Shown: piece by piece, positions 44,189 to 64,000 of the stretch | Layout: the number at the start of each line of letters is the position of its first letter | How positions within the stretch are numbered: the stretch's first letter is position 1 | Assembly (NCBI GenBank): GCA_963663405.2 | Contig: CAXXSM010000140.1 | Span: 1-64,000 of the forward strand | Source of the DNA: a bacterium | GTDB lineage: Bacteria; Hinthialibacterota; Hinthialibacteria; Hinthialibacterales; Hinthialibacteraceae | Length of the DNA: 64,000 nt | Reading direction: 5' to 3' | Notes under the pieces: generated by a model | The model's input: the letters and a program-made list of their open reading frames with translations, nothing else | What the model was told of the DNA's origin: nothing | The model's database searches: none | Position numbers and translations under genes: made by a program

Positions 44189-45232
44189 TTAGTTTTCGAT
44201 ATTTGCTTTTTTACTATTTTCCAGAACTGACTGATAGTCTGTAATTTCTTTGTAAAAATCTATGCTATTACCCATATCGACCTTTTCGCAAAAAAACAAT
44301 CGTTCATAAGGTCCACCGTTATTGTTGAAATAGCAGTATATATGCGGATCGTAATAGTACTCATCACCTTCCCAATTTACTGTTTCGATAGATTCGAATG
44401 GAATTTCTCCAACTAGAAGTGCGCTAATTTCTCTTTCTTCATTGTTTTTATAATCCGTATATCTATAACCCCCTTCACATTCAGTTAAACCTACCCATCT
44501 TAATCCGACTTTTATGCCTCTGGTATATGTTTCAAGTATACCAATACGGAACCATGATGAAATTCCGGTATCTTCATCATCTGTGTTAGGGTAACCATCC
44601 ACCCTATCTATATCTCTGATTATGACATCTCCTCTAAGCTTCTCAGCTCGAATTTTAAATTCTTTTCTTAGTTTTTCTCTGTGATGAACTAACTCAACAT
44701 TTGAAGAAAATTTTGCTTCTGATGACTTAGTTTGGTTTAAGAAAGGATATAGTGCTGATTTTAAGGAAGCTACTAGAGATTTTCTGATGTTTGATTTATC
44801 CGTAAAGTTATTTGAAGAAAGTTCATACTGTATAGGCCAACGCTTGTGAGATAAATCAAAAGGCAAATTTCCCTCCGGTTTTCCAAATGCTGTGTTCATT
44901 ACATTTATAATTCGATTGTCTCTTAATGCGTTCAAAGCATAGCCGAGTTCAATCATGACATTGGGATTTGAAACAAGCTTTTTACTATCAACTGTCTTAG
45001 CGATAAATGTTATATCACCTATAAAAATATCACTTTTTTCTATTTTATTTAATATTGTAGATACAATATCAGGCGTACCCTGAACATTCTTTGTGTCGTG
45101 ATCTAGTCTAAGAGGTTCTTCAATTTTTAATTCTTCGTTTAGTAGTTTTATTGCTCTTTCAAGGCACTCTTTTATGAAGTTTCGATTGTATTTCGCATCA
45201 ATATCGCTTTGCCATGAATAGAAAATTATCAA
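44189..45232 (-). CDS. Integron cassette ORF: TIR-like/nucleotide-binding N-terminal domain plus an uncharacterised C-terminal domain
   Basis: IFYSWQSD…GTPDI..TILNKI..SDIFIGDIT…NPNVMIELGYA…LPFDL. Visibly AT-rich. RBS GAGGTG and TTG start. Confidence 0.82.
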   Translation of the reverse strand: MIIFYSWQSDIDAKYNRNFIKECLERAIKLLNEELKIEEPLRLDHDTKNVQGTPDIVSTILNKIEKSDIFIGDITFIAKTVDSKKLVSNPNVMIELGYALNALRDNRIINVMNTAFGKPEGNLPFDLSHKRWPIQYELSSNNFTDKSNIRKSLVASLKSALYPFLNQTKSSEAKFSSNVELVHHREKLRKEFKIRAEKLRGDVIIRDIDRVDGYPNTDDEDTGISSWFRIGILETYTRGIKVGLRWVGLTECEGGYRYTDYKNNEEREISALLVGEIPFESIETVNWEGDEYYYDPHIYCYFNNNGGPYERLFFCEKVDMGNSIDFYKEITDYQSVLENSKKANIEN

Positions 45233-54594: not shown

Positions 54595-54909
54595 TCTCCT
54601 CAGTTATTATATTGATTTCATACCAATTTGATGGAGTTCTTAAATCCTATAGAGGATAGCAAGAAATCAAAGTTTTTGGACAGGGAAGGGAATTAGGTCC
54701 GGTACTGATTCATCATGAGAGAGATATCCTCATTCTATTCGATTGATTCTGCAGATAAAAAACAGAGAAAACTTGTACTCCTTATAAAAAGTGAGTACTC
54801 TTGCTAAATAATTACTTTTAAATTCGTTTTCGATTGATCTTACTCGGTTTATTGGAACTTATTCTTTGTATGAAAAGAATCCGTCCAGGTGAAAGAAACT
54901 CAATACATC

Positions 54910-56097
54910 ATGAAAAAGAAAAACAATTCATTTCCTACATCGGAAGAGATTGTAGAGATCCTTAGTAAAAAAAATGAAGCTCTTGCTCGATTGTTGACGG
55001 ATGAACTTCTTGAATTAATGATGGCGAACGCTGTGGTGAAGCGGTATCCCGTCGGCAAAGAAATTATTAAGCAGCATAAACCATCTGATTCTCTTTATAT
55101 CGTTTTAGAAGGACGCTGTCATGTGTTAATCAATGATGAGTTGATCAGCCAAATGGAAACGGGAGATTTATTTGGTGAGATGGGCGTGATTCAAAATATG
55201 CCAAGAAGCGCGACAGTCATTACGACGGAAAAAACCCGCGCGCTTCGAATTCCCGGCGCCGATTTTAAAAAGATGTTATATAATCCGAAATTGGCTCAGT
55301 GGATAATGGTTCTCCTGACCGATCGCTTAAAACGCAGTTCCCTTGACGCTGTCCGCGCAATGAAAGAAAAAGAGGAGATTCTTCAGGACCAAATAGAACT
55401 GGCGCGCGTGCAACGCTCGCTATTGCCCAATGAACTGCCAACCGATATGCGTGTCCGGCTGCAAGTGCTGTATTCTCCCTGTACATACGCCGGAGGGGAT
55501 TATTATGATTCGATTTTACTCGATCATGATCGTCTTCTGCTAATCGTCGCGGATGTCACAGGACATGGGGCCCAAGCTTCCATTTCCATGGCGATTGTGC
55601 GCTCCTTTATTCATCAGCCCAACATAGGAAAAAGAGCGTCAACCATTCTCAAACGATTGAATAACTATCTTTTGGAATACGGTCCCTCACAACATTTTGT
55701 CACCGCGCAGGTTGCAATCCTGGATTTAAATACGCGGAAACTCCAATACGCGTACGCAGGGCATCCTCCGATTTTGCTTTTGCGGAATGGTGTTTGCAAA
55801 CCACTGCCCGCGCCCCGCGCTTATTTTCTCCGTTTTCATTGGGACGCGTCATATGAATACTCGACAATTTCATTGAAACCTGGAGACCGGATCGCCCTTT
55901 TCACGGACGGAGTTGTCGAGACCTTCAATCCTTCGGGCGCGATGTTCAACATGGAAGGATTACAGAATTTAATCGTGAATACACGAATGAAATCCCTTCC
56001 GGAAATTCCTTCTCTATTAGAAGCGGAACTAAAACGCTTCCGGAAAGGCAGTCCCGTAGAGGATGATATTACATTTCTAGTGGCGGAAATACAATGA
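54910..56097 (+). CDS. cNMP-binding domain fused to a PP2C (SpoIIE/RsbU) phosphatase
   Basis: GDLFGEMG…PRSATV (cNMP); GGDYYD, ADVTGHG, AGHPP, FTDGVVE, DDIT (PP2C). Confidence 0.92.
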   Translation: MKKKNNSFPTSEEIVEILSKKNEALARLLTDELLELMMANAVVKRYPVGKEIIKQHKPSDSLYIVLEGRCHVLINDELISQMETGDLFGEMGVIQNMPRSATVITTEKTRALRIPGADFKKMLYNPKLAQWIMVLLTDRLKRSSLDAVRAMKEKEEILQDQIELARVQRSLLPNELPTDMRVRLQVLYSPCTYAGGDYYDSILLDHDRLLLIVADVTGHGAQASISMAIVRSFIHQPNIGKRASTILKRLNNYLLEYGPSQHFVTAQVAILDLNTRKLQYAYAGHPPILLLRNGVCKPLPAPRAYFLRFHWDASYEYSTISLKPGDRIALFTDGVVETFNPSGAMFNMEGLQNLIVNTRMKSLPEIPSLLEAELKRFRKGSPVEDDITFLVAEIQ

Positions 56098-56140: not shown

Positions 56141-56818
56141 TTATGAATTCTTCGCGGTGATCTGGCTGTAGTCCAATCGGATTTCAATTCTCCGGTTGAT
56201 TTTGGATTCGATTTTATCTTCGAGGGGCTGGTATTCGCCATAACCGATCGCGGAGATGCGATTCATTTCTAATTTTACATTTGTATTATCCTCTTGAGAT
56301 AGTTGGTGAAACAAGCGGACAACCGCTAAAGCCCGTTCACTGGACAATTCCCAATTATCCTCGTAGCGGCCACTATGGATAGGCAGGCGGTCTGTATGCC
56401 CTTCCACTTCAATTAACAACTTGGGATGACCATATTCGGTTAGAAATTGCGCGAGGTGGGTTAAGACTTCCCTTCCTCTTGGTTGTAGATTGGCTTCCCC
56501 TTTCACAAATACAATGTCAGCAGAGAAACGTAATCGTTGTAAACTGCCTTTTCTCTCTTCTGTAATGGCGCCTTTTTCAATGGCTTCTTGAAAGATTGAG
56601 TTTTCTCTGAACTGCCGCCAAAACAACTCTTGTTGCTGTTTTCGTGTGAGTTCATCAAAAACCTGGGACAATTCCAAGAACTGCGCGACTAACATAAAGA
56701 CAAAAAACAAAACGAGAGCCATGGAAATATCCGAAAAGACAGGCCATACATCATCCGTGCTTGAATAGGCGCTGTCAATGAATGGATCGTGTCGATATCT
56801 ATGGTTGCGTTTGCTCAT
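56141..56818 (-). CDS. ZorB/MotB-like protein (TM helix with conserved Asp plus OmpA-like peptidoglycan-binding domain)
   Basis: WPVFSD (Asp30) before the TM; IEVEGHTD, NWELSSERA, GYGEYQP, NRRIEI. Confidence 0.88.
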   Translation of the reverse strand: MSKRNHRYRHDPFIDSAYSSTDDVWPVFSDISMALVLFFVFMLVAQFLELSQVFDELTRKQQQELFWRQFRENSIFQEAIEKGAITEERKGSLQRLRFSADIVFVKGEANLQPRGREVLTHLAQFLTEYGHPKLLIEVEGHTDRLPIHSGRYEDNWELSSERALAVVRLFHQLSQEDNTNVKLEMNRISAIGYGEYQPLEDKIESKINRRIEIRLDYSQITAKNS

Positions 56819-56826
56819 GAAAACAT

Positions 56827-58683
56827 TTATCTTTTCGGTTTCAAAAATGTAAATAGATTAGAAATTCTCTGTCCCCATCGTATGTTTTTCTCACGGATCG
56901 ATTGAGTAAGAAGCAGAAGCGCTTGTGTTGTTTTTCGTAATTCCGCATGCAATGAATCCTGCTCTTGATTGGTTTCAGAAGATTGTTTTGTTCGCGTGGA
57001 TTCACTGATTGACGTTGACAATTCATTGGATGGCGCATTCGGAATGTTAGCAAGGTTTGTTTGATTTACATTCATTTCATCAACGCTGTCTTTTAATAGA
57101 TTCCATGATTCGATTGATGTGGAATCACGATTGATCCGCTCTAAAATCTTGGCCGCTTTATCCATTTTCTTGTGTATCGCGATCATTTCTGTTTTGATTT
57201 CAATCAGTGGATTCACAATTACATTCGGGAAGACCGATAATTTGTTATTCAAGTTTTTCAGTGGGAAGTGCGCCGCTTGTTCTTCCAATCCTTTTTGCAA
57301 AGAATCAACATGTTCCCGGATTGATTCCACCGTGTGTGCAAGAAGCGCCGCTGGTGGACGAAATTCGGCAGTGAATCTATCTGATTGATCGGCCATCCAC
57401 GCTTTCATGTCATCCAATCGGATTTGTACATCACGTATCGTAGTCTTTAAATCGGATAGATTCGAGATCCCCTCGTTTTGAATTTGTGATAAATTGACAT
57501 CCATGTCAGAAGACGCCTGATCAATGCTGGATTGCAGGCGGTTCAGCGCAGGAACAATTTGCTGTATTTGTTCTAGTTCTTTGCTATTGAATTCTGTAAT
57601 TTGTGACCAGTGTTTCGCAAGTTCCTGCTCCAACACCTTTCCGATTGTTTTAACGACTTCTAACCGGAGTTCACTTTCAGGTGTAATTTTCGCGATGGTA
57701 TCATTGAGCTGATTGATACGTTCGCGCATAAAACCGAGTACATGATTTGTTTTTTCCGCGGCGTCAGAAAAATAACCGGCTGCGTGTTCTAAGCGATCGA
57801 TGACTTCTTGTATATTGATTTGTCGATCCGCCGCAGTTTGTACAGCGGAGACCAATTGCACGCAGAGTTGGTTGATCGCATTGGATGTGCTTTCCACTGT
57901 TTCTGTGAAGGTCTTTTCCACTACTTGGCGGCTGACGGTTTCCACCATTTCTCGAATCGATTGCAGTAAATCATCATTATCCGGCGCCGCCAGTGGCACA
58001 ATGGATGTAGTCAAGATCGTATCCACTTGTTTGAGTAAATGATTGTTCATCCAGCGGGAAGCGATTAAAAGCGGTGATAGAACCACTGCGCCGATGACTC
58101 CAAATAATGTGGTTGTAAAGGCCGTGCCCAATCCGGAAAGTGTATTTCGTAATGGTTCACGCAGGTTTTCAATACTTGTGAGGGATTCGATATCAAAATA
58201 TACATTTTGAATAGCCATCGTGAGACCGATCAATGTGCCGATCAGGCCTAATAAAATACACATGCGTTGAAACAATTGTAACAATCCTACAGGCTTGTAA
58301 CGCGCAAGGCTTAATTCCACGACATCATCGACTAACCGGCGCGCAGAATGGCGATCAAGCCGTTCAATCATTCGAATTGCATTTTTAAGGACAGGGACAT
58401 GCCAACAGATTTTTCGCAATCGTGCAATTGTATCTTCTGTGCCGGAAGAAGTTGAATTCATTTTTGAAATACGGCTATGAATCCAACGGATAGCGGCGAT
58501 CGTATATCCCCGCCATGAAAATTGAATGAGAAATAGGATAAATCCTATATCCACTATCCAGCGGATTATAAAAATAATGTATTCCGCTTCAGCAGATAAA
58601 GAAGTGAAGATACTTTTTTGAAAGTCAATTGGCAAAAAAGAAAACAAAAAATCAGTCAGCATTGAACTGTATCCAGTTGACAT
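56827..58683 (-). CDS. ZorA-like MotA/TolQ/ExbB channel with a ~400-aa helical cytoplasmic tail
   Basis: Three TM segments (about aa 36-57, 142-158, 186-207); LLGLIGTLIGL and GLGTAFTTTLFG motifs; long heptad-rich tail. Confidence 0.82.
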   Translation of the reverse strand: MSTGYSSMLTDFLFSFLPIDFQKSIFTSLSAEAEYIIFIIRWIVDIGFILFLIQFSWRGYTIAAIRWIHSRISKMNSTSSGTEDTIARLRKICWHVPVLKNAIRMIERLDRHSARRLVDDVVELSLARYKPVGLLQLFQRMCILLGLIGTLIGLTMAIQNVYFDIESLTSIENLREPLRNTLSGLGTAFTTTLFGVIGAVVLSPLLIASRWMNNHLLKQVDTILTTSIVPLAAPDNDDLLQSIREMVETVSRQVVEKTFTETVESTSNAINQLCVQLVSAVQTAADRQINIQEVIDRLEHAAGYFSDAAEKTNHVLGFMRERINQLNDTIAKITPESELRLEVVKTIGKVLEQELAKHWSQITEFNSKELEQIQQIVPALNRLQSSIDQASSDMDVNLSQIQNEGISNLSDLKTTIRDVQIRLDDMKAWMADQSDRFTAEFRPPAALLAHTVESIREHVDSLQKGLEEQAAHFPLKNLNNKLSVFPNVIVNPLIEIKTEMIAIHKKMDKAAKILERINRDSTSIESWNLLKDSVDEMNVNQTNLANIPNAPSNELSTSISESTRTKQSSETNQEQDSLHAELRKTTQALLLLTQSIREKNIRWGQRISNLFTFLKPKR

Positions 58684-59924
58684 GAATGTGTTTTGAGCAC
58701 AGGTAGATAAGCGATCGAATGATCCCGCCTGTTATGTATTGTGATAATATCGGTCCATAAATCCTGCGAAGGTCTACAGGGAAGATACAAGGTTGTTCGT
58801 ATTGGATCAGAATCGTCCATTTCTACTTCTGTATTTTCTAATTCTGGTGGGAAATAGAATAGTAAATCCATACCATCTCCACGAACATCATTAATGGATT
58901 TGACAAGAATAGAGACGATCTGATTGTCCGTATTCCAATTGATCAAAGGTGGAAAAATATTGAGTCTTTGACGCTTAGGGAATTGAATGATGCGCTTGCG
59001 ATTTGTGATAATCGTTTCATCTGTTTCAACAGTTACGTTATAGGAAAATATATCTGAGTCACGACCGCAGGAAAGTTCGATTGTATTAATCGGAGAAGTG
59101 TTAGACAATAATAAATCTTGTTTTATGTGCGTCTTTCCACCCTTTTTCCGTATCCTCGCTTTAACAGGCCGTTCTCCGATTAATTTTAATCTTAACGTAT
59201 ATCGATCGAGATGCTCATCATCAAATTTATCCAACTGATGTTCTATCGTAACCATTGGCGATTGCAAGAGAAAGACAATAGTTGTTTCGAGTTCTGGAAT
59301 TGATAATCGGTAACGTATAGGTAAATTCGTTGTCGGTAAATCTGTATTCGTTGGATATCGCACTAAGAACGTATTTTTTGTAGTCTTATCACACTCAATA
59401 TAGAGACCCAGCGGATTTTTATTAAGTAAATTCAGTAATAAAGGCTGTGGCATTGAAATCAGAAAACCAGGATTAAACATAACATAACTTAAAATTCCTC
59501 GAGAATATAGATAAACATTATGCCGAATTGAGGGGAGAGGGCTTGATAGACGTTTTTCATTCGTAACAATTCCAATTTTTAGATCCCTTATTACTTCATC
59601 AAATCGCAGCCAAATCCCTTCCGTTGAGTCCCACTCGTATTGGATCGGATAATCCTGTATATAGCCATTCCTATCTAAAATGTATTTACCTGCAATCCAT
59701 CGATTTTTAGAGAGCGCTCCAATACAGAATTGACCATTTCCACCAGTTACCAATGTTAGCTCAGAATGAGATTGGAGACGAACCTTGTATGTTTCGGATA
59801 GAGGCAATTTCGGTGGGATATGACCTAAAGGTTCTAGTTGTAAACGATCGATATCTACGGGTGTGGCAATGACTCCCGAATTGGTCCAGATTGTTTCATT
59901 CAATGAAAAAGATATGTCATTCAT
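58656..59924 (-). CDS. Hypothetical beta-rich protein in the ZorAB-like operon
   Basis: 422-aa ORF, 8 bp from the upstream gene and overlapping the zorA-like start; no signal peptide or known motif. Confidence 0.75.
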   Translation of the reverse strand: MNDISFSLNETIWTNSGVIATPVDIDRLQLEPLGHIPPKLPLSETYKVRLQSHSELTLVTGGNGQFCIGALSKNRWIAGKYILDRNGYIQDYPIQYEWDSTEGIWLRFDEVIRDLKIGIVTNEKRLSSPLPSIRHNVYLYSRGILSYVMFNPGFLISMPQPLLLNLLNKNPLGLYIECDKTTKNTFLVRYPTNTDLPTTNLPIRYRLSIPELETTIVFLLQSPMVTIEHQLDKFDDEHLDRYTLRLKLIGERPVKARIRKKGGKTHIKQDLLLSNTSPINTIELSCGRDSDIFSYNVTVETDETIITNRKRIIQFPKRQRLNIFPPLINWNTDNQIVSILVKSINDVRGDGMDLLFYFPPELENTEVEMDDSDPIRTTLYLPCRPSQDLWTDIITIHNRRDHSIAYLPVLKTHSCQLDTVQC

Positions 59925-59932
59925 GAGCGCAA

Positions 59933-61420
59933 TTATACTATCTCTACATCAGGTTTACGAAGAATTTTTTTGGTTGATCGCCAGTAGAATCCTCTGTGTA
60001 TGACTCGTTTGATACGCCCATTTGTTTTAGGATCAGCCCAGGTTACTAATTGATGTTGAGCAGGATTGAATGGCTCTCCATGAGAAGGTTGCATGATTTC
60101 AAGATCAAACAATTCGGCAATCTCCAGAAAATGATGAACAAGGGTAGTATAGAATTCTTCGGCTTCTATTGTGTCCTGTTCCTGTTCTTCCCATTGATAT
60201 ACATAATTTAAAAAATATTTCTGCACGACGGTTGGAAGAAATTGGTTTTTCTGAGCGAGTGGTTTACGTGTGCGAATCGCTTTGGAAAATGCTTTGTCAA
60301 TAATAACAAATATGTATTGCATGAATCCACTTTCATCACGAGTAAGAGACATCGCATGTCGATATTCTCCATGCTGATAAAGCAGTTCGCGATAATCGTT
60401 GAAATCCGATAAAAATTTTCCAAATTCTATCATTAAATCATCCGCAGACAGTTGAAAAGGCAATACAGGTCCGATATTGGAAAGAAATTCATACAAATTA
60501 TCTCTAAAGTTTGTTACGAAGGAACTTGCGGATGGATTCACTCTGAGAAGTATCATGATAGCGCCATTTTTTTGATCCACTTTGTTAAAGAATTGTATCG
60601 CAATATCAAAATCCTCCACATCGACGCTGCAATAATTCTGAATATCCTGTGTTTCCAATTTCCACTTGGCATTCATAAACTCAGTCAGATCGTTGCACTG
60701 CTCACGAACACGCTCTACAGGTGATTGCGCGCGAAACTGGAAAGATTGAGATTGATTGTCAGTTTTCATCAAAGAAATCGATTCAGATATAGGTTCAGGT
60801 TCTTCATGCTCTGCAGATGAATACCGATCGTTTACGATTTTCCCTGTAACTTCTGGATGTTGAGTAATAAGTTTTTCTAGAATCTGAGATAGTTTCTTCT
60901 CCCGGTTAAAAAAAATCCAAATCATAATAAACCAGGAAATCATTATAATGCAAATAAGAATAGTAAATATTATTAAGTAAAAAGAAAAATCGGAAGTACC
61001 GGCTGTGTCGTAGTCAGTAGAATTATCACTTGGTACTTGTCTTGGCTCCGGTAATGGTTTCAATTTATTTTCATTTATGAATATCAGTATAGGATAATAA
61101 CCGGAAGGGATTCCATATAAAGCGTACGTCTTTGTATTCAAAACACACAAAGATGGAAAAAGAGAGGATAAAATCGATGAAGGGACATTCAACCAAAAGG
61201 AACTTATATTATTCTGAAAATCTATGGTTGAAGATGAATTGATTATTAGAGAAGATATGACTGGACTCGGTGACTGTATTTCAGTATGGTTTCTTGCAGT
61301 ATTATCGTGATTCTCAACTGCATAAGATTGATGGAGAAACAGAGGAATGAAGAAGAAAGAAAACAGGAAGCATAAATACATGATTCGAACAGTTTTTGTA
61401 TACCCAAGCGATCTATACAT
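59933..61420 (-). CDS. Membrane-anchored protein with a C-terminal GrpE-like head
   Basis: Signal-like N-terminus, TM at about aa 147-171, C-terminus GEPFNPAQHQLV…GRIKRVIHRGFY…ILRKPDVEIV. Confidence 0.78.
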   Translation of the reverse strand: MYRSLGYTKTVRIMYLCFLFSFFFIPLFLHQSYAVENHDNTARNHTEIQSPSPVISSLIINSSSTIDFQNNISSFWLNVPSSILSSLFPSLCVLNTKTYALYGIPSGYYPILIFINENKLKPLPEPRQVPSDNSTDYDTAGTSDFSFYLIIFTILICIIMISWFIMIWIFFNREKKLSQILEKLITQHPEVTGKIVNDRYSSAEHEEPEPISESISLMKTDNQSQSFQFRAQSPVERVREQCNDLTEFMNAKWKLETQDIQNYCSVDVEDFDIAIQFFNKVDQKNGAIMILLRVNPSASSFVTNFRDNLYEFLSNIGPVLPFQLSADDLMIEFGKFLSDFNDYRELLYQHGEYRHAMSLTRDESGFMQYIFVIIDKAFSKAIRTRKPLAQKNQFLPTVVQKYFLNYVYQWEEQEQDTIEAEEFYTTLVHHFLEIAELFDLEIMQPSHGEPFNPAQHQLVTWADPKTNGRIKRVIHRGFYWRSTKKILRKPDVEIV

Positions 61421-61443
61421 AATAGAATCCTAAATAGAAGTAA

Positions 61444-62943
61444 TCATCCAAGTCTCACCGTAGGTTTGCGAATGGGATTGCCTTGGATCCGTTTGACTCC
61501 TCGTCTTACGATCGATTGAATACGGCCTGAGTTAGAACTCGATTCCTGTGCAAATTCTTCCAGCGTATGTTGAAGAGGATCAAAAGTATCATGGATTTTT
61601 ACATCCGTCAGTTCCATTCCCAGTGGTTTTAATAAAGAACTTAGATAATCCGTAAGGATCGGTGATAATTCGGGAATTGTGTTGCTATATTTCTTTTCTA
61701 AAATTTCAAGTTCATCAATATGTTCCATCACATCAACTTTCGCGATCCGATTCAATTCTTCCGTCAGCGTTTCGATAGAAATGTGTGAGGATTGAATTTC
61801 ATGAATCGCATCCAATAGAATTGTATTATAAAAGGAAAATACATAGTGACGGTAGGCAATAACTGGGTCCAATCGATCGTTCGAAGGGATATCTTCTTTC
61901 CCTATCAATCCCACAATCGTATGATAATAATCCGAATGAAGAAACTCGTTATATTTTTTGGGATTCTGATCAGTAAAATTAGGTATTTTTGTCACTCCAA
62001 ACATGGCGTTGTATTTAGACTGGATCTGCTCGCGAAATCCCCCTACTTTAAATTTGAAGGCGGAATGGGATTGTTCAATAGTTTGAATCGCAGGATTATC
62101 CGGCGAAAAAGAATTGATAAGCGTGTTAAACGCAATGAAAGCGGGATGATTTTCTAAGTCTGGAATCAAATTCAATTGCGCTTCCCGGATGCATTTATAT
62201 TTATTAACAGAAAACGCACGTTTTACAAGTTCTATAAATTCCTGGTAATCCTCTTGCGCTTTACGGTGATCGCTTACAGACAATAAATCATGTTTAAGAG
62301 AACGAATTTCATTCTGAAGGATGCGATTGTATGTTTCACCAGTCTCAATGGTTGATAGTTTTGAAAAGAGTTTGTTAAATGATAATTCTGTTTTGGAAAT
62401 GAATTCAACTACTTTGCTATGTTGATTGTTGAATTGATTCAGAAAACCTTTGTAGCTTACAGACAACGCGTTCAGTTGTTCTGATAGATATGTGAATTGA
62501 TCCGATGAGTTTGTTGATGGAAATGAGATTATATTTTTTTGCTCTGACTTATAATCAGATGTTGTATTCATGGATAAAGATATTTTTACTATATATTTGC
62601 GATCAATTGGATGTGGCCAAATTTGTAGATTAAAATGTACTTCATCAAAATCTTCCGGCTTTGATAATTTAATATAATATCTTGATTTGAAGATACCATT
62701 ATAATAACTTAATGGACATTTTTGTTTGTTTTTGTTTAGGATAAAATGGCCATCCACAATATTAAAATCATTAGTGCGTTGAATTTTAGGAATCAATTGT
62801 ATATAGTTACTATGTTCGTCTGGGATAAAATCGATGATGCCTTTCTTAACGATAGGAGAATTGTGATTTGCGCGTAAAATTTCATAAAAAATAACATATT
62901 CTCCTATTATTATTGTATTTTCATAACATTTCATTGGACGCAT
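61444..62943 (-). CDS. Soluble coiled-coil protein with a C-terminal GrpE-like head
   Basis: C-terminus LKPLGMEL…HDTFDPLQH…GRIQSIVRRGVK…PIRKPTVRLG; helical middle; no TM. Confidence 0.78.
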   Translation of the reverse strand: MRPMKCYENTIIIGEYVIFYEILRANHNSPIVKKGIIDFIPDEHSNYIQLIPKIQRTNDFNIVDGHFILNKNKQKCPLSYYNGIFKSRYYIKLSKPEDFDEVHFNLQIWPHPIDRKYIVKISLSMNTTSDYKSEQKNIISFPSTNSSDQFTYLSEQLNALSVSYKGFLNQFNNQHSKVVEFISKTELSFNKLFSKLSTIETGETYNRILQNEIRSLKHDLLSVSDHRKAQEDYQEFIELVKRAFSVNKYKCIREAQLNLIPDLENHPAFIAFNTLINSFSPDNPAIQTIEQSHSAFKFKVGGFREQIQSKYNAMFGVTKIPNFTDQNPKKYNEFLHSDYYHTIVGLIGKEDIPSNDRLDPVIAYRHYVFSFYNTILLDAIHEIQSSHISIETLTEELNRIAKVDVMEHIDELEILEKKYSNTIPELSPILTDYLSSLLKPLGMELTDVKIHDTFDPLQHTLEEFAQESSSNSGRIQSIVRRGVKRIQGNPIRKPTVRLG

Positions 62944-62953
62944 TTTATCAACC

Positions 62954-63974
62954 CTACTGCATTAATATAGGAAATTCAAAATAGTCTACAAAACGGCCAA
63001 ACGAACCAGTCAGGCAAGTTTGTACACGCCCATCCATAAGGCGATGAGATTCCAGTACAACCTTTTCGGGAGCCATATACAATCGGCGCTTTTTTAGGTT
63101 TATGGTTTTAAGAGGATGCAATGCTATACCCGGATAGCCGAACCAAAATTCAACAAACGGGATTACACCGTTGGAAGAAGTGAGAGCATCTATCCGGCCT
63201 CCTGTAATTGGATCTTCTTCATGAATTAAAGGCAGAAAATCCCACAATCCATGACGAATACCAATCGCTCCATTACGACGGATCGATATTGTACTAAATC
63301 CACTACGAATTTCATCTAAATATAAGGAGACATTTTTGAGAGCTTGCTCCGTTGTTGAATCTAAAATGAAAGGTACAGAACTGGAAAGATCTCGAGAAAA
63401 TACAAGAAAACGGTTATGCGCGTTCTCACTCGATTCATCCCGAAGTTGGTGTTGAATCACTGCTTCACTATGCAAATTATTATGCTGGACAGTAATCCAT
63501 GACGCTTCAACTACACATTCCCGCTGGCGAAGAACGATAATGGAATCATTGTGATTATTCTCCTTGATAGCGGCTAATGCAAATAATGGCGCGCCATCCG
63601 CGAAACAACACTCCCCCTTTCCAGCCCAAATGAGTCAGGAGTGAACTAAGGGATTCTTGAGTCGATGTTGATACTCCAGTAGGGAGCATCATAACTAGCC
63701 AATCACTTTCATTCATTTGACGATTTTTTAGAGCGCGTGAAAAAAAGGGATGAAGAGCGGCGGCGATTTCGCTTGATGGTAATGTATCTATGAATTGCGC
63801 AGGATTTGAAATTACCACTCCTTCATAGGATGAGGGGGGCCACGGACCGCCATCCCAAATCAATCCCTCTTCTGTTTTACGTCCAAGCCAGCTATCAGGA
63901 ATGTGGCCGGAATTTCCATCGGAATCGGCCCATGCTGGATTTACGGGACAAAAATCAAACACGAGTGTAACCAT
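62954..63974 (-). CDS. Degenerate Hsp70/actin-fold-like protein (~339 aa after removing one extra base at the C-run 63613-63617)
   Basis: MVTLVFDFCPVN…WLVMMLPTG…QESLSSLLTHLGWK, then in the adjacent frame GECCFADGAPLFALAA…IIVLRQRECVVEASWITV, which is continuous with ORF 62954-63475. Confidence 0.55.
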
Positions 63975-64000
63975 GATCGGCTCAACAATCGGAAAGGATT

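Follow-up and report, generated by a model that had tools for sequence, protein, structure and literature searches.

A ZorAB-like motor pair encoded with GrpE-like proteins, a giant Hsp70 and an FtsZl1 tubulin-like protein: a candidate Zorya-type system from uncultured bacteria

What would a motor of the Zorya type do in an operon whose other products resemble chaperones and a tubulin? To our knowledge, no other immune system is built around a motor resembling a flagellar stator, and the three Zorya types described so far have different soluble partners. The question is raised by a locus at the right end of a 64,000-base stretch of bacterial DNA (hereafter the window), which is the first 64000 bases of the 73553-base contig CAXXSM010000140.1. 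Six co-directional minus-strand genes span positions 56141-63974, with gaps of 8, -28, 8, 23 and 10 bp; a preliminary description of the window had given the same six co-oriented genes and the same gaps, and the coordinates of the open reading frames (ORFs) agree with it. The operon runs past the right edge. It comprises about 10-11 genes in total, and the window holds its downstream half, the last two genes of which, in the order of transcription, encode the stator-like pair.

Our reading, to which we would give an even chance, is that the operon encodes a system of the Zorya type that is triggered at the envelope and read out by a module of Hsp70, GrpE and tubulin-like proteins, and that this system would act in conflict or defence. 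The system itself is real: it is rare, belongs to uncultured lineages and is conserved across two candidate phyla, namely the small phylum of the window (phylum A, 35 genomes) and a second small phylum (phylum B, 14 genomes). It can be divided into two putative modules. Module 2, in the window, would consist of one or more GrpE-like exchange factors, an Ig-like adaptor protein, ZorA and ZorB. Module 1, which lies mostly past the window, would consist of Zn-ribbon, DxSxS-motif membrane and small transmembrane (TM) proteins, an FtsZl1 GTPase, a Zn-ribbon/Hsp70 ATPase and a small protein resembling an Hsp70 substrate-binding domain (SBD). The preliminary description lacked the FtsZl1 tubulin-like gene and the Zn-ribbon and membrane genes upstream of it, all of which lie outside the window.

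The stator-like pair

The last gene (56141-56818, minus strand) encodes a ZorB-like stator B subunit of 225 aa. The protein matches Pfam OmpA (E 1.8e-13) and, among PADLOC models, ZorB3 best (E 1.1e-24), followed by ZorB1 (E 4e-21). Its single TM segment, residues 23-55, carries the sequence WPVFSD with D30 inside the segment, and its identity to the orthologs in three relatives is 57-58%. The gene begins 8 bp after that of the ZorA-like stator A subunit (56827-58683, minus strand; 618 aa), the start of which overlaps the gene upstream. The ZorA-like protein gives a weak, above-threshold match to Pfam MotA_ExbB (E 1.9e-6) and matches PADLOC ZorA1 (E 1.1e-9) and ZorA3 (E 1e-7). It has three hydrophobic segments (33-57, 134-161 and 184-212) and the motifs GLIGTLIGL and GLGTAFTTT, whose residues are invariant across six orthologs from two phyla. 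The segments are followed by a tail of 406 aa with a Pro+Gly content of 4.4% and a strongest hydrophobic period of 3.6 residues. The windowed power of this periodicity is 1.17, compared with 0.36 +/- 0.08 in shuffled sequences, and was reached by 0/200 shuffles; the helical character of the tail is thus read from period and composition, not from a structure model. These data bear out the preliminary description of an A subunit with three TMs, GT and AFTTT motifs and a helical tail of ~400 aa, and of a B subunit with WPVFSD and an OmpA domain.

In one of the relatives (G019) the ZorA-like gene is split in the genome contig (L018 7094-8921), and an intact gene of 608 aa is present in a metagenome contig (L049 16881-18707). 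The latter, a separate assembly, is 99.7% identical to the G019 contig over the 4.2 kb compared.

The pair is better described as ZorAB-like than as ExbB-, TolQ- or MotA-like, an assignment that the preliminary description had also made and that is supported at the level of sequence comparison. Both proteins match PADLOC ZorA/ZorB models, while no NCBIfam model of MotA, TolQ or ExbB matches the A subunit at E<=0.1. Moreover, the genome contains seven MotA_ExbB matches, six of which lie in frames of 183-408 aa (38-113 bits); the ZorA-like protein alone lies in a long frame (634 aa, 29.7 bits). The A subunit nevertheless belongs to the MotA/ExbB/TolQ superfamily, which leaves room for an energy transducer comparable to ExbBD, TolQR or AglRQS that powers the assembly of a surface structure, export or movement, with Hsp70 and GrpE as substrate-handling chaperones. 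A periplasmic loop of ~108 aa between the two TMs of one GrpE-like paralog would suit such a machine, as would the Ig-like domains found among the partners (in the 422-aa protein described below and in the Hsp70 of a distant relative). We consider this explanation improbable, given that the ZorB-like protein keeps its peptidoglycan-binding OmpA domain, that the A subunit has a Zorya-type cytoplasmic tail and no periplasmic partner, and that the pair is recognized by the ZorA/ZorB models and not by those of transport or flagellar motors. In addition, no TonB/TolA-like, secretin, pilus, flagellar or gliding gene was found in or beside the operon in the loci analysed, which agrees with the earlier remark that no flagellar, tonB or tol genes are adjacent.

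As in Zorya generally, the A subunit is a MotA/ExbB-family protein with a long cytoplasmic tail, and the B subunit, encoded directly after it, has a TM aspartate and a peptidoglycan-binding domain. The type-specific partners of Zorya, i.e., ZorC/ZorD in type I, ZorE in type II and ZorF/ZorG in type III, are absent. None of ZorC, D, E, F or G was found by PADLOC at E<=0.1 in the five partner ORFs, or at E<=0.01 or 0.001 in the upstream genes and the phylum B partners; the preliminary description had recognized none of them either. Because the ZorA and ZorB features are present and the partners are not, the operon is not a member of Zorya types I-III. By analogy, it may still work like a Zorya core.

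The GrpE-like heads, the giant Hsp70 and their companions

Two long GrpE-like proteins, one anchored in the membrane and one soluble, had been proposed in the preliminary description, and TM predictions and a profile search both uphold the proposal. The membrane-anchored protein (59933-61420, minus strand; 495 aa) has TM segments at 10-31 and 140-174, the periplasmic loop mentioned above being predicted between them and the C-terminal GrpE head being predicted to be cytoplasmic. Pfam GrpE matches its residues 427-494 with E 4.5e-4, under the curated cut-off. It is an extra paralog, seen in the genome of the window only, and matches the family profile, to whose alignment it belongs, with E 1.8e-134. 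The soluble protein (61444-62943, minus strand; 499 aa) is composed of an N-terminal domain, a helical middle and a C-terminal GrpE beta-domain; it has no TM segment and no Pfam match. Sub-threshold matches to Pfam GrpE occur on the same C-terminal stretch in four of the six family members scanned.

A profile of nine members of this family, searched against 1.84 billion representative proteins, gave 45 matches at E<=1e-3. The subsequent Pfam scan skipped P0001-P0007, which were taken as family members, and the 75-aa fragment P0010; among the 37 non-family matches scanned, 32 carry Pfam GrpE above the curated cut-off and five carry no family. Searched against the Protein Data Bank (PDB), the profile placed GrpE structures at ranks one (3a6m, E 0.01) and three (8gb3, E 0.06). 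Since the profile recovers bona fide GrpE proteins, the sequence case that the C-terminal ~70-100 aa of both long proteins form a GrpE homolog is a solid one. The remainder of each protein, i.e., the N-terminal domain and the helical middle, is not GrpE-like. Members of the long family are scarce: the 1.84 billion representatives include about a dozen relatives of full length.

Long GrpE-like genes also occur singly. Genes of this kind, ~480-515 aa in length and with a well-conserved N-terminus, are present in genomes G012, G009, G011 and G001, and in the first two their neighbour is a gene for a B12-binding radical SAM protein. The genome of the window itself carries such a gene as a second copy, at G000:C88:31262-32743 (L012 10260-11747).

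The preliminary description had expected the operon to continue past the right edge, possibly with an active Hsp70. The extended contig bears this out: the last bases of the window (63982-64000, minus strand) are the 3' end of a gene that spans contig positions 63982-67197 and encodes an Hsp70-like protein of 1071 aa. An N-terminal Zn ribbon and ~360 further residues precede its Hsp70 ATPase domain. The match to Pfam HSP70 is above the cut-off (E 2.5e-8), and models of DnaK and HscA match with E 2e-11 to 3e-7, far under their full-length cut-offs. The phosphate-1, phosphate-2 and adenosine motifs GIDFGNTN, DFGGGTID and GQSS are invariant in four orthologs (D403-N408, D614-D621 and G878-S881), so far as motifs can tell an apparently active ATPase.

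The soluble GrpE-like protein may dock on this Hsp70, as suggested by a model of the complex. The C-terminal region of the 499-aa protein, modelled with the Hsp70 nucleotide-binding domain, gave a median score of 0.72, compared with 0.00 for the best control; a score of 0.72 is attained by 58/80 solved complexes and by 2/110 mismatched pairs. The three runs scored 0.00, 0.75 and 0.72, with a contact agreement of at least 0% (the tool's own figure) and a partner pLDDT of at least 54. In the modelled interface, residues 399-410 and 453-499 of the GrpE beta-domain face residues 431-482 and 770-830 of the Hsp70, i.e., the two lobes of its nucleotide-binding domain. The arrangement would resemble the canonical DnaK-GrpE cycle both in the homology of the GrpE beta-domain and in the contact with both lobes. 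Unlike the canonical pair, the GrpE-like proteins are 2-3 times longer than GrpE and have an unrelated N-terminal domain or TM anchors, while the 1071-aa Hsp70 is enlarged by ~360 residues and by an acidic insert of ~100 aa, the latter located in the lobe contacted by GrpE. No J-domain protein is seen in the operon.

A distant metagenome contig (L050 732-7413) encodes a 969-aa Zn-ribbon/Ig-like/Hsp70 protein (Pfam HSP70 E 6e-40) and, after it, two long GrpE-like proteins with TM anchors, of 640 and 621 aa (GrpE E 2.2e-5 each). No ZorAB is present within the 9.7 kb seen. The pairing of a giant Hsp70 with long GrpE-like proteins is, by this arrangement, wider than its link to ZorAB.

Beyond the Hsp70 gene, at contig positions 67280-70297, lies a gene for a 1005-aa protein of the FtsZl1 family (Pfam Tubulin_2, E 2.1e-22; 80.3 bits against a cut-off of 27), whose orthologs match Tubulin_2 with E 1e-30 to 1e-43. 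Three further genes follow, to position ~73505 of the contig. In relatives, where they are intact, they encode a small TM protein, a TM protein of ~580 aa and a Zn-ribbon protein of ~510 aa. The ~580-aa protein has a D-x-S-x-S motif (W46, D47, S49, Q50 and S51 are invariant in three orthologs), which makes it von Willebrand factor A (vWA)-like by motif only. A profile search of the PDB found nothing for the Zn-ribbon protein.

The two remaining proteins of the window are the least recognizable. Between the Hsp70 and the GrpE-like genes, a small gene for a protein of ~340 aa is broken into two ORFs that differ in frame (62954-63475 and 63555-63974, minus strand), both of which are covered by a single gene of 337-344 aa in the relatives. 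No Pfam, NCBIfam or relevant PDB profile matches the protein, BLASTP against the large Hsp70 gives nothing, and hhalign of the two gives a probability of 0.5%. Five of the top six structural rows for residues ~232-344 (VIA-align) are nevertheless Hsp70 substrate-binding beta domains: the DnaK SBD 1dg4 (Z 8.6, rmsd 3.0, 100 aa), the hHsp70 SBD 5gjj (Z 8.6, rmsd 3.6, 108 aa), mortalin 3n8e (Z 8.0), Ssz1 5mb9 (Z 7.0) and BiP 5e84 (Z 6.7). A structural Z of ~8 is the tool's noise limit, and the matched stretch has a block-mean pLDDT of ~56-81. The N-terminal part (1-171; pLDDT <50) gives weak and mixed folds (MreB Z 4.6, Arp Z 4.4, OmpA-like Z 4.6). In the ESM Atlas, the protein is matched by DUF5716_C clusters of Bacillota (score 0.91, 29/30 matches, 123-136 shared features), which we take as a lead only. 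A relationship of the modelled C-terminal domain to Hsp70 is plausible. The preliminary description had called the protein a pseudo-Hsp70; of this, a C-terminal SBD-like fold stands on a low-confidence model, while sequence methods lend no support to a pseudo-Hsp70 consisting of a nucleotide-binding domain alone.

The soluble 422-aa protein encoded directly upstream of ZorA (58656-59924, minus strand) belongs to no known family: it has no Pfam, PADLOC or NCBIfam match, and a word-based search of 5.8 billion proteins returned the protein itself alone. Its orthologs, at 23-24% identity, are found in the same three relatives that carry the Hsp70 gene. The AF2 model has a mean pLDDT of 45.4 and is better over residues 223-413, where two tandem beta sandwiches (223-318 and 319-414) are predicted that give generic Ig/FN3 matches with Z up to 10. 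The best ESM Atlas score is 0.80.

Conservation, rarity and genomic surroundings

Strong matches to the giant Hsp70 occur in four of the 35 phylum A genomes (G000, G006, G019 and G014); two weak additional matches are ordinary genes of DnaK size. The 422-aa gene is present in exactly the same four genomes, so that the two genes co-occur in 4/4 carriers and 0/31 others. The GrpE-like family is found in 8/35. All ten genes are present, intact and in the same order, in G006 and in the 56.8-kb metagenome contig L049. In G014, the half from the Zn-ribbon gene to the small-protein gene is on one contig and the GrpE-like, 422-aa, ZorA and ZorB genes are on another; the two modules thus stay together in a genome even though they are unlinked.

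To look beyond phylum A, Tubulin_2 was sought in 401 genomes and found in 26, from which 19 loci of other lineages were taken. Hidden Markov models built from the operon orthologs matched both the Hsp70 and the ZorA types in 2/19 of these FtsZl1 loci; the other 17 gave no match. The two loci (G225 and G056) are both from phylum B. Their order is a Zn-ribbon protein, a D-x-S-G-S protein, a TM protein, Tubulin_2 (E 2e-43 and 2e-42), a Zn-ribbon Hsp70, a protein of ~403 aa, a TM-anchored protein (250 and 335 aa) whose C-terminus is GrpE-like, a protein of ~390 aa, a long protein of the MotA_ExbB family (797 and 869 aa) and, last, an OmpA protein. Pfam GrpE matches the 250-aa protein (E 2.7e-5) and not the 335-aa one, and the MotA_ExbB and OmpA proteins match the PADLOC ZorA/ZorB models. 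The Hsp70 type occurs in 3/14 phylum B genomes, the third of which shows the first module up to the contig end. Both of the loci described also have an additional gene (255-269 aa) that overlaps the ZorB-like gene at its end (L105 2614-3423 and L107 4640-5407); it has no family match and no counterpart in the window's lineage.

Between the phyla, the tubulin-like, Hsp70, ZorA and ZorB proteins are 22-25% identical, and for the GrpE C-termini hhalign gives a weak alignment (E 9e-4, probability 23%). That the gene order is kept across two phyla at ~22-25% identity argues that the system works, and the conservation of gene order in three genera of phylum A and in the phylum B loci passes a check proposed in the preliminary description. 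The middle three genes diverge fast, at 16-30% identity compared with 50-58% for the tubulin-like and ZorB genes. Relatives are few. A scan of genome contigs with the Hsp70 alignment found a known relative, four weak generic Hsp70 matches and nothing else; a scan of metagenomes turned up one distant contig and one relative nearly identical to G019; and word-based protein searches returned 1, 4 and 2 proteins.

Could the genes nevertheless be chance neighbours or the remnant of a decaying locus? The split small gene invites the thought, as do three upstream genes, each of which aligns with its G006 counterpart in two or three different frames. However, the extra base at window position 63603 (L002:7604) is absent from both Logan contigs that cover it, which come from two studies among four public runs compared; these contigs are shallow (depths 3.3 and 2), and the window's own sample may be the source of one run. 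Related strains in these runs differ from the window's contig by seven further single-base indels (L002 14611, 14858, 16360, 16380, 16514, 17092 and 17493) in the three upstream genes, where the run depth is 2-8, near the contig end. On the comparison of these sequences, we see the frame breaks as probable errors of assembly, or as variation between strains, at a place where depth is low and the contig ends nearby, and the reading as pseudogenes was rejected once the contigs of other runs had been compared. Since the extra base is lacking in other assemblies and the orthologs are intact, we take the small gene to be a single gene. The gaps between the genes are tight or overlapping, the rest of the window consists of long intact ORFs, and the modules co-occur in 4/4 carriers even where unlinked; together with the order kept across two phyla, this conserved synteny largely refutes the absence of a system, which we find hardly credible. 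The bounds of the operon are not set by promoter-like or terminator-like sites, since their counts (32 vs 35.2 and 14 vs 17.6, respectively) are no higher than in shuffled sequence.

The preliminary description had the six genes as visibly more AT-rich than the housekeeping genes around them. This holds mainly for the three middle genes, i.e., the two GrpE-like genes and the 422-aa gene (58656-62943), with GC contents of 34.3, 36.0 and 37.6% where the genome as a whole has 46.9%; the Hsp70 and tubulin-like genes resemble the genome in GC, and ZorA and ZorB are intermediate. A recent transfer of the whole operon was rejected, as the AT-richness is confined to three genes and the operon has the GC of its flanks in three other genomes. 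The AT-rich middle genes may be a cassette swapped in this genome.

In the window, the operon is flanked by ordinary genes of metabolism or the cell surface. Convergent to ZorB, at 54889-56097 on the plus strand, lies a gene for a cyclic nucleotide (cNMP)-binding domain fused to a SpoIIE/PP2C phosphatase, and its PADLOC matches to Pycsar/TIR effectors arise through the cNMP-binding domain only. Farther away, at 44189-45232 on the minus strand, a 347-aa protein has a TIR-type-like N-terminus (weak Pfam CAP12-PCTIR_TIR match, E 0.0085) and no PADLOC match; its gene adjoins an ECF-sigma-like pair. The surroundings in phylum B are of another kind. At one locus, genes for a resolvase and a PemK/MazF and RHH pair lie upstream (L095 3335-4607), and an ankyrin-repeat protein that matches the PADLOC candidate PDC-M72A with E 7e-86 is encoded downstream (L105 3420-5123). 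Upstream of the other lies a gene for a 1132-aa protein with NERD and two kinase domains (L096 2369-5767, minus strand), matching mad6 (E 1e-74), PglW (E 1e-62) and also PD-T4-6.

Relation to known systems and possible function

Zorya type III (zorFABG; the Burkholderiales operons of DUF3348, DUF802, OmpA and DUF2894 proteins) bears the closest resemblance to the stator half of the operon in that a long-tailed MotA-family A subunit is followed by an OmpA-domain B subunit, the window's ZorB matches PADLOC ZorB3 best, and the partner genes of both have no enzymatic signature. The nearest plasmid-borne relatives of the ZorB-like protein (~31% identity) are the OmpA genes of DUF3348-DUF802-OmpA-DUF2894 operons, in which we take DUF3348, DUF802 and DUF2894 to be ZorF, ZorA and ZorG. 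This naming is supported only by the canonical Zorya gene order as quoted in the available part of PMC11946911. In contrast to type III, neither DUF3348 nor DUF2894 is present here: the partners are GrpE-like and Ig-like proteins encoded upstream, plus the six-gene Hsp70/FtsZl1 module, and the ZorA head is only 29% identical to a DUF802 protein, along 83 aa. Types I and II share the ZorAB core (ZorA1 E 1.1e-9, ZorB1 E 4e-21) and the long tail with this operon, but not their ZorC, ZorD, ZorE, nuclease or helicase partners.

The other half of the operon has precedents of its own. FtsZl1/OmpA neighbourhoods were noted in 2010, with partners named as vWA, GTPase, kinase and OmpA, and the FtsZl1 operons with vWA, GTPase and OmpA genes were proposed to be membrane-remodelling systems (PMC2875224, as far as its accessible text goes). 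Like the present operon, they combine a Tubulin_2 protein of ~1000 aa, bearing a large C-terminal extension, with membrane, DxSxS-motif and OmpA-family proteins. They differ in that no GTPase is seen here and in that Hsp70 and ZorA genes accompany only 2/19 of the FtsZl1 loci from other lineages. The accessible text of PMC2875224 contains 0 mentions of Hsp70, GrpE or MotA-family proteins, although its unnamed families B1-B9 may be these genes. The system is a two-module unit that overlaps the neighbourhoods described in 2010, to judge from that portion of the paper.

A second precedent is the DO-GTPase (GAP1-N2) systems (Kaur et al. 2020, PMC7159879; likewise from the part of the text available), where Hsp70 with GrpE and a second Hsp70, and separately tubulin, are themes predicted as conflict modules or regulated assemblies. 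The shared parts are Hsp70, GrpE and a reduced second Hsp70-like protein, together with FN3/Ig-repeat, tubulin and vWA-type membrane proteins. Those systems, however, are built on paired GTPases and GAP1, belong to actinobacteria and firmicutes, and keep tubulin and Hsp70/GrpE as non-overlapping themes, whereas here the two occur together with ZorAB attached. No GTPase family of Pfam or NCBIfam was found in the operon proteins, models specific to DO-GTPase or GAP1 not being among those used. The available text of PMC7159879 has 0 mentions of MotA, MotB, ExbB or TolQ. Conversely, in the parts at hand of the Zorya and stator papers, there is no mention of Hsp70, GrpE, tubulin or DnaK in PMC11890865 and PMC12505986, and none of 'chaperone' in PMC11946911. 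Full-text literature, in which few subscription journals are covered, yielded no description of this combination, whether as ZorAB or MotA together with Hsp70, GrpE or tubulin or as a type IV of Zorya. We rate as new the pairing of a ZorAB motor with partners that include no nuclease and that bring together two themes hitherto predicted separately.

How might such a combination operate? ZorB would anchor the complex to peptidoglycan. The ion-driven ZorA/ZorB unit would be switched on by a disturbance of the envelope, e.g., phage entry, by analogy with Zorya type I as presented in the available part of PMC11946911. The long ZorA tail would then relay the signal to the membrane-proximal GrpE-like proteins and the Ig-like protein, whereupon the GrpE head would drive nucleotide exchange on the operon's own Hsp70, and the Hsp70 would remodel or nucleate an FtsZl1 polymer and its membrane partners at the site. 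What sets the system off, which way its signal runs, where the chain ends and what part it plays in conflict or defence are taken here by analogy, and each may differ from this outline.

What speaks for a conflict role? In the available part of PMC11946911, a long ZorA tail is present in all subtypes of Zorya and required for defence, and long-tailed motors of the ZorA type are so far known from Zorya defence only. The patchy presence of the system (4/35 and 3/14 genomes), its fast-evolving middle genes, which are AT-rich in the window's genome, and the phylum B flanks are further pointers in the same direction, as is the prediction of much the same set of parts as conflict machinery in PMC7159879.

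A number of observations weigh against it. No nuclease, protease, NADase, pore or other recognizable effector was found in the loci analysed, and no step after the motor has a recognizable killing or DNA-degrading activity. No PADLOC model matches any partner protein, and 13 neighbouring proteins in the window's genome gave no convincing defence match, only matches to the cNMP-binding domain. In the three other phylum A genomes, the operon and its flanks have the same GC. A scan of viral contigs yielded no relative, and plasmid records (tblastn) contain none for the ZorA or the tubulin-like gene. The known kin are few and not independent: phylum A contributes three genera, and two of its four genomes are from one genus. 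Individual components are open to question as well. The AlphaFold models of the small and the 422-aa proteins are both poor (mean pLDDT 46.6 and 45.4), and neither protein can be aligned across the phyla (hhalign 0.15% and 0.14%), so that the small and the ~400-aa proteins are 'conserved' in position and size only. The vWA identity of the ~580-aa protein consists of its motif, with no Pfam, NCBIfam or PDB-profile match. The score of the complex model may reflect memory of DnaK-GrpE complexes already solved, for which reason its pass amounts to likeness and not proof, and one of the three runs scored 0.00. Finally, the solitary relatives of the GrpE-like proteins in four other genomes, and the second copy in this one, stand without ZorAB or an Hsp70 gene; the GrpE-like family is not, therefore, tied to the motor.

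Part of this evidence is also compatible with a non-immune machine of the envelope, in which the motor, FtsZl1 and Hsp70/GrpE shape, repair or vesiculate the inner membrane as an accessory function. We regard this as a substantial possibility, though short of an even chance. Such a role was proposed earlier for FtsZl1 operons (PMC2875224, accessible text), and it accords with the lack of a recognizable toxic effector, the ordinary metabolic and surface genes without convincing defence matches that flank the operon in the window, and the equality of operon and flank GC in the three phylum A genomes. The 22-25% identity across phyla, together with the kept order, suggests old vertical or ancient inheritance, which would likewise be expected of it. 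With only 4/35 and 3/14 genomes carrying the system, however, the function cannot be a core one. The restriction of long-tailed ZorA-type motors to Zorya defence, the defence- and mobility-associated genes beside the phylum B loci, and middle genes that evolve fast and look exchanged in the window's genome also argue against remodelling and favour the conflict reading.

The strongest form of the conflict reading is that the operon represents a fourth kind of Zorya, in which a proton-driven ZorAB is read out by an exchange factor that fires a giant Hsp70 and a tubulin-like polymer for immunity. We consider this form rather unlikely. If it were true, a chain leading from a mechanical signal through a chaperone to the cytoskeleton would be in use for immunity, and the OmpA-family genes beside some FtsZl1 genes would be explained as Zorya-type stators.

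The locus would bear on research into Zorya, Hsp70 and the bacterial cytoskeleton, a relevance tempered by its confinement to uncultured lineages. It places the uncharacterized FtsZl1 family in what would be a concrete context, and it gives a direct biochemical hypothesis, namely that movement of the tail gates nucleotide exchange on an Hsp70. A Zorya-type motor without a nuclease, and with Hsp70, GrpE and tubulin-like partners, would show that the ZorAB tail can address quite different machinery.

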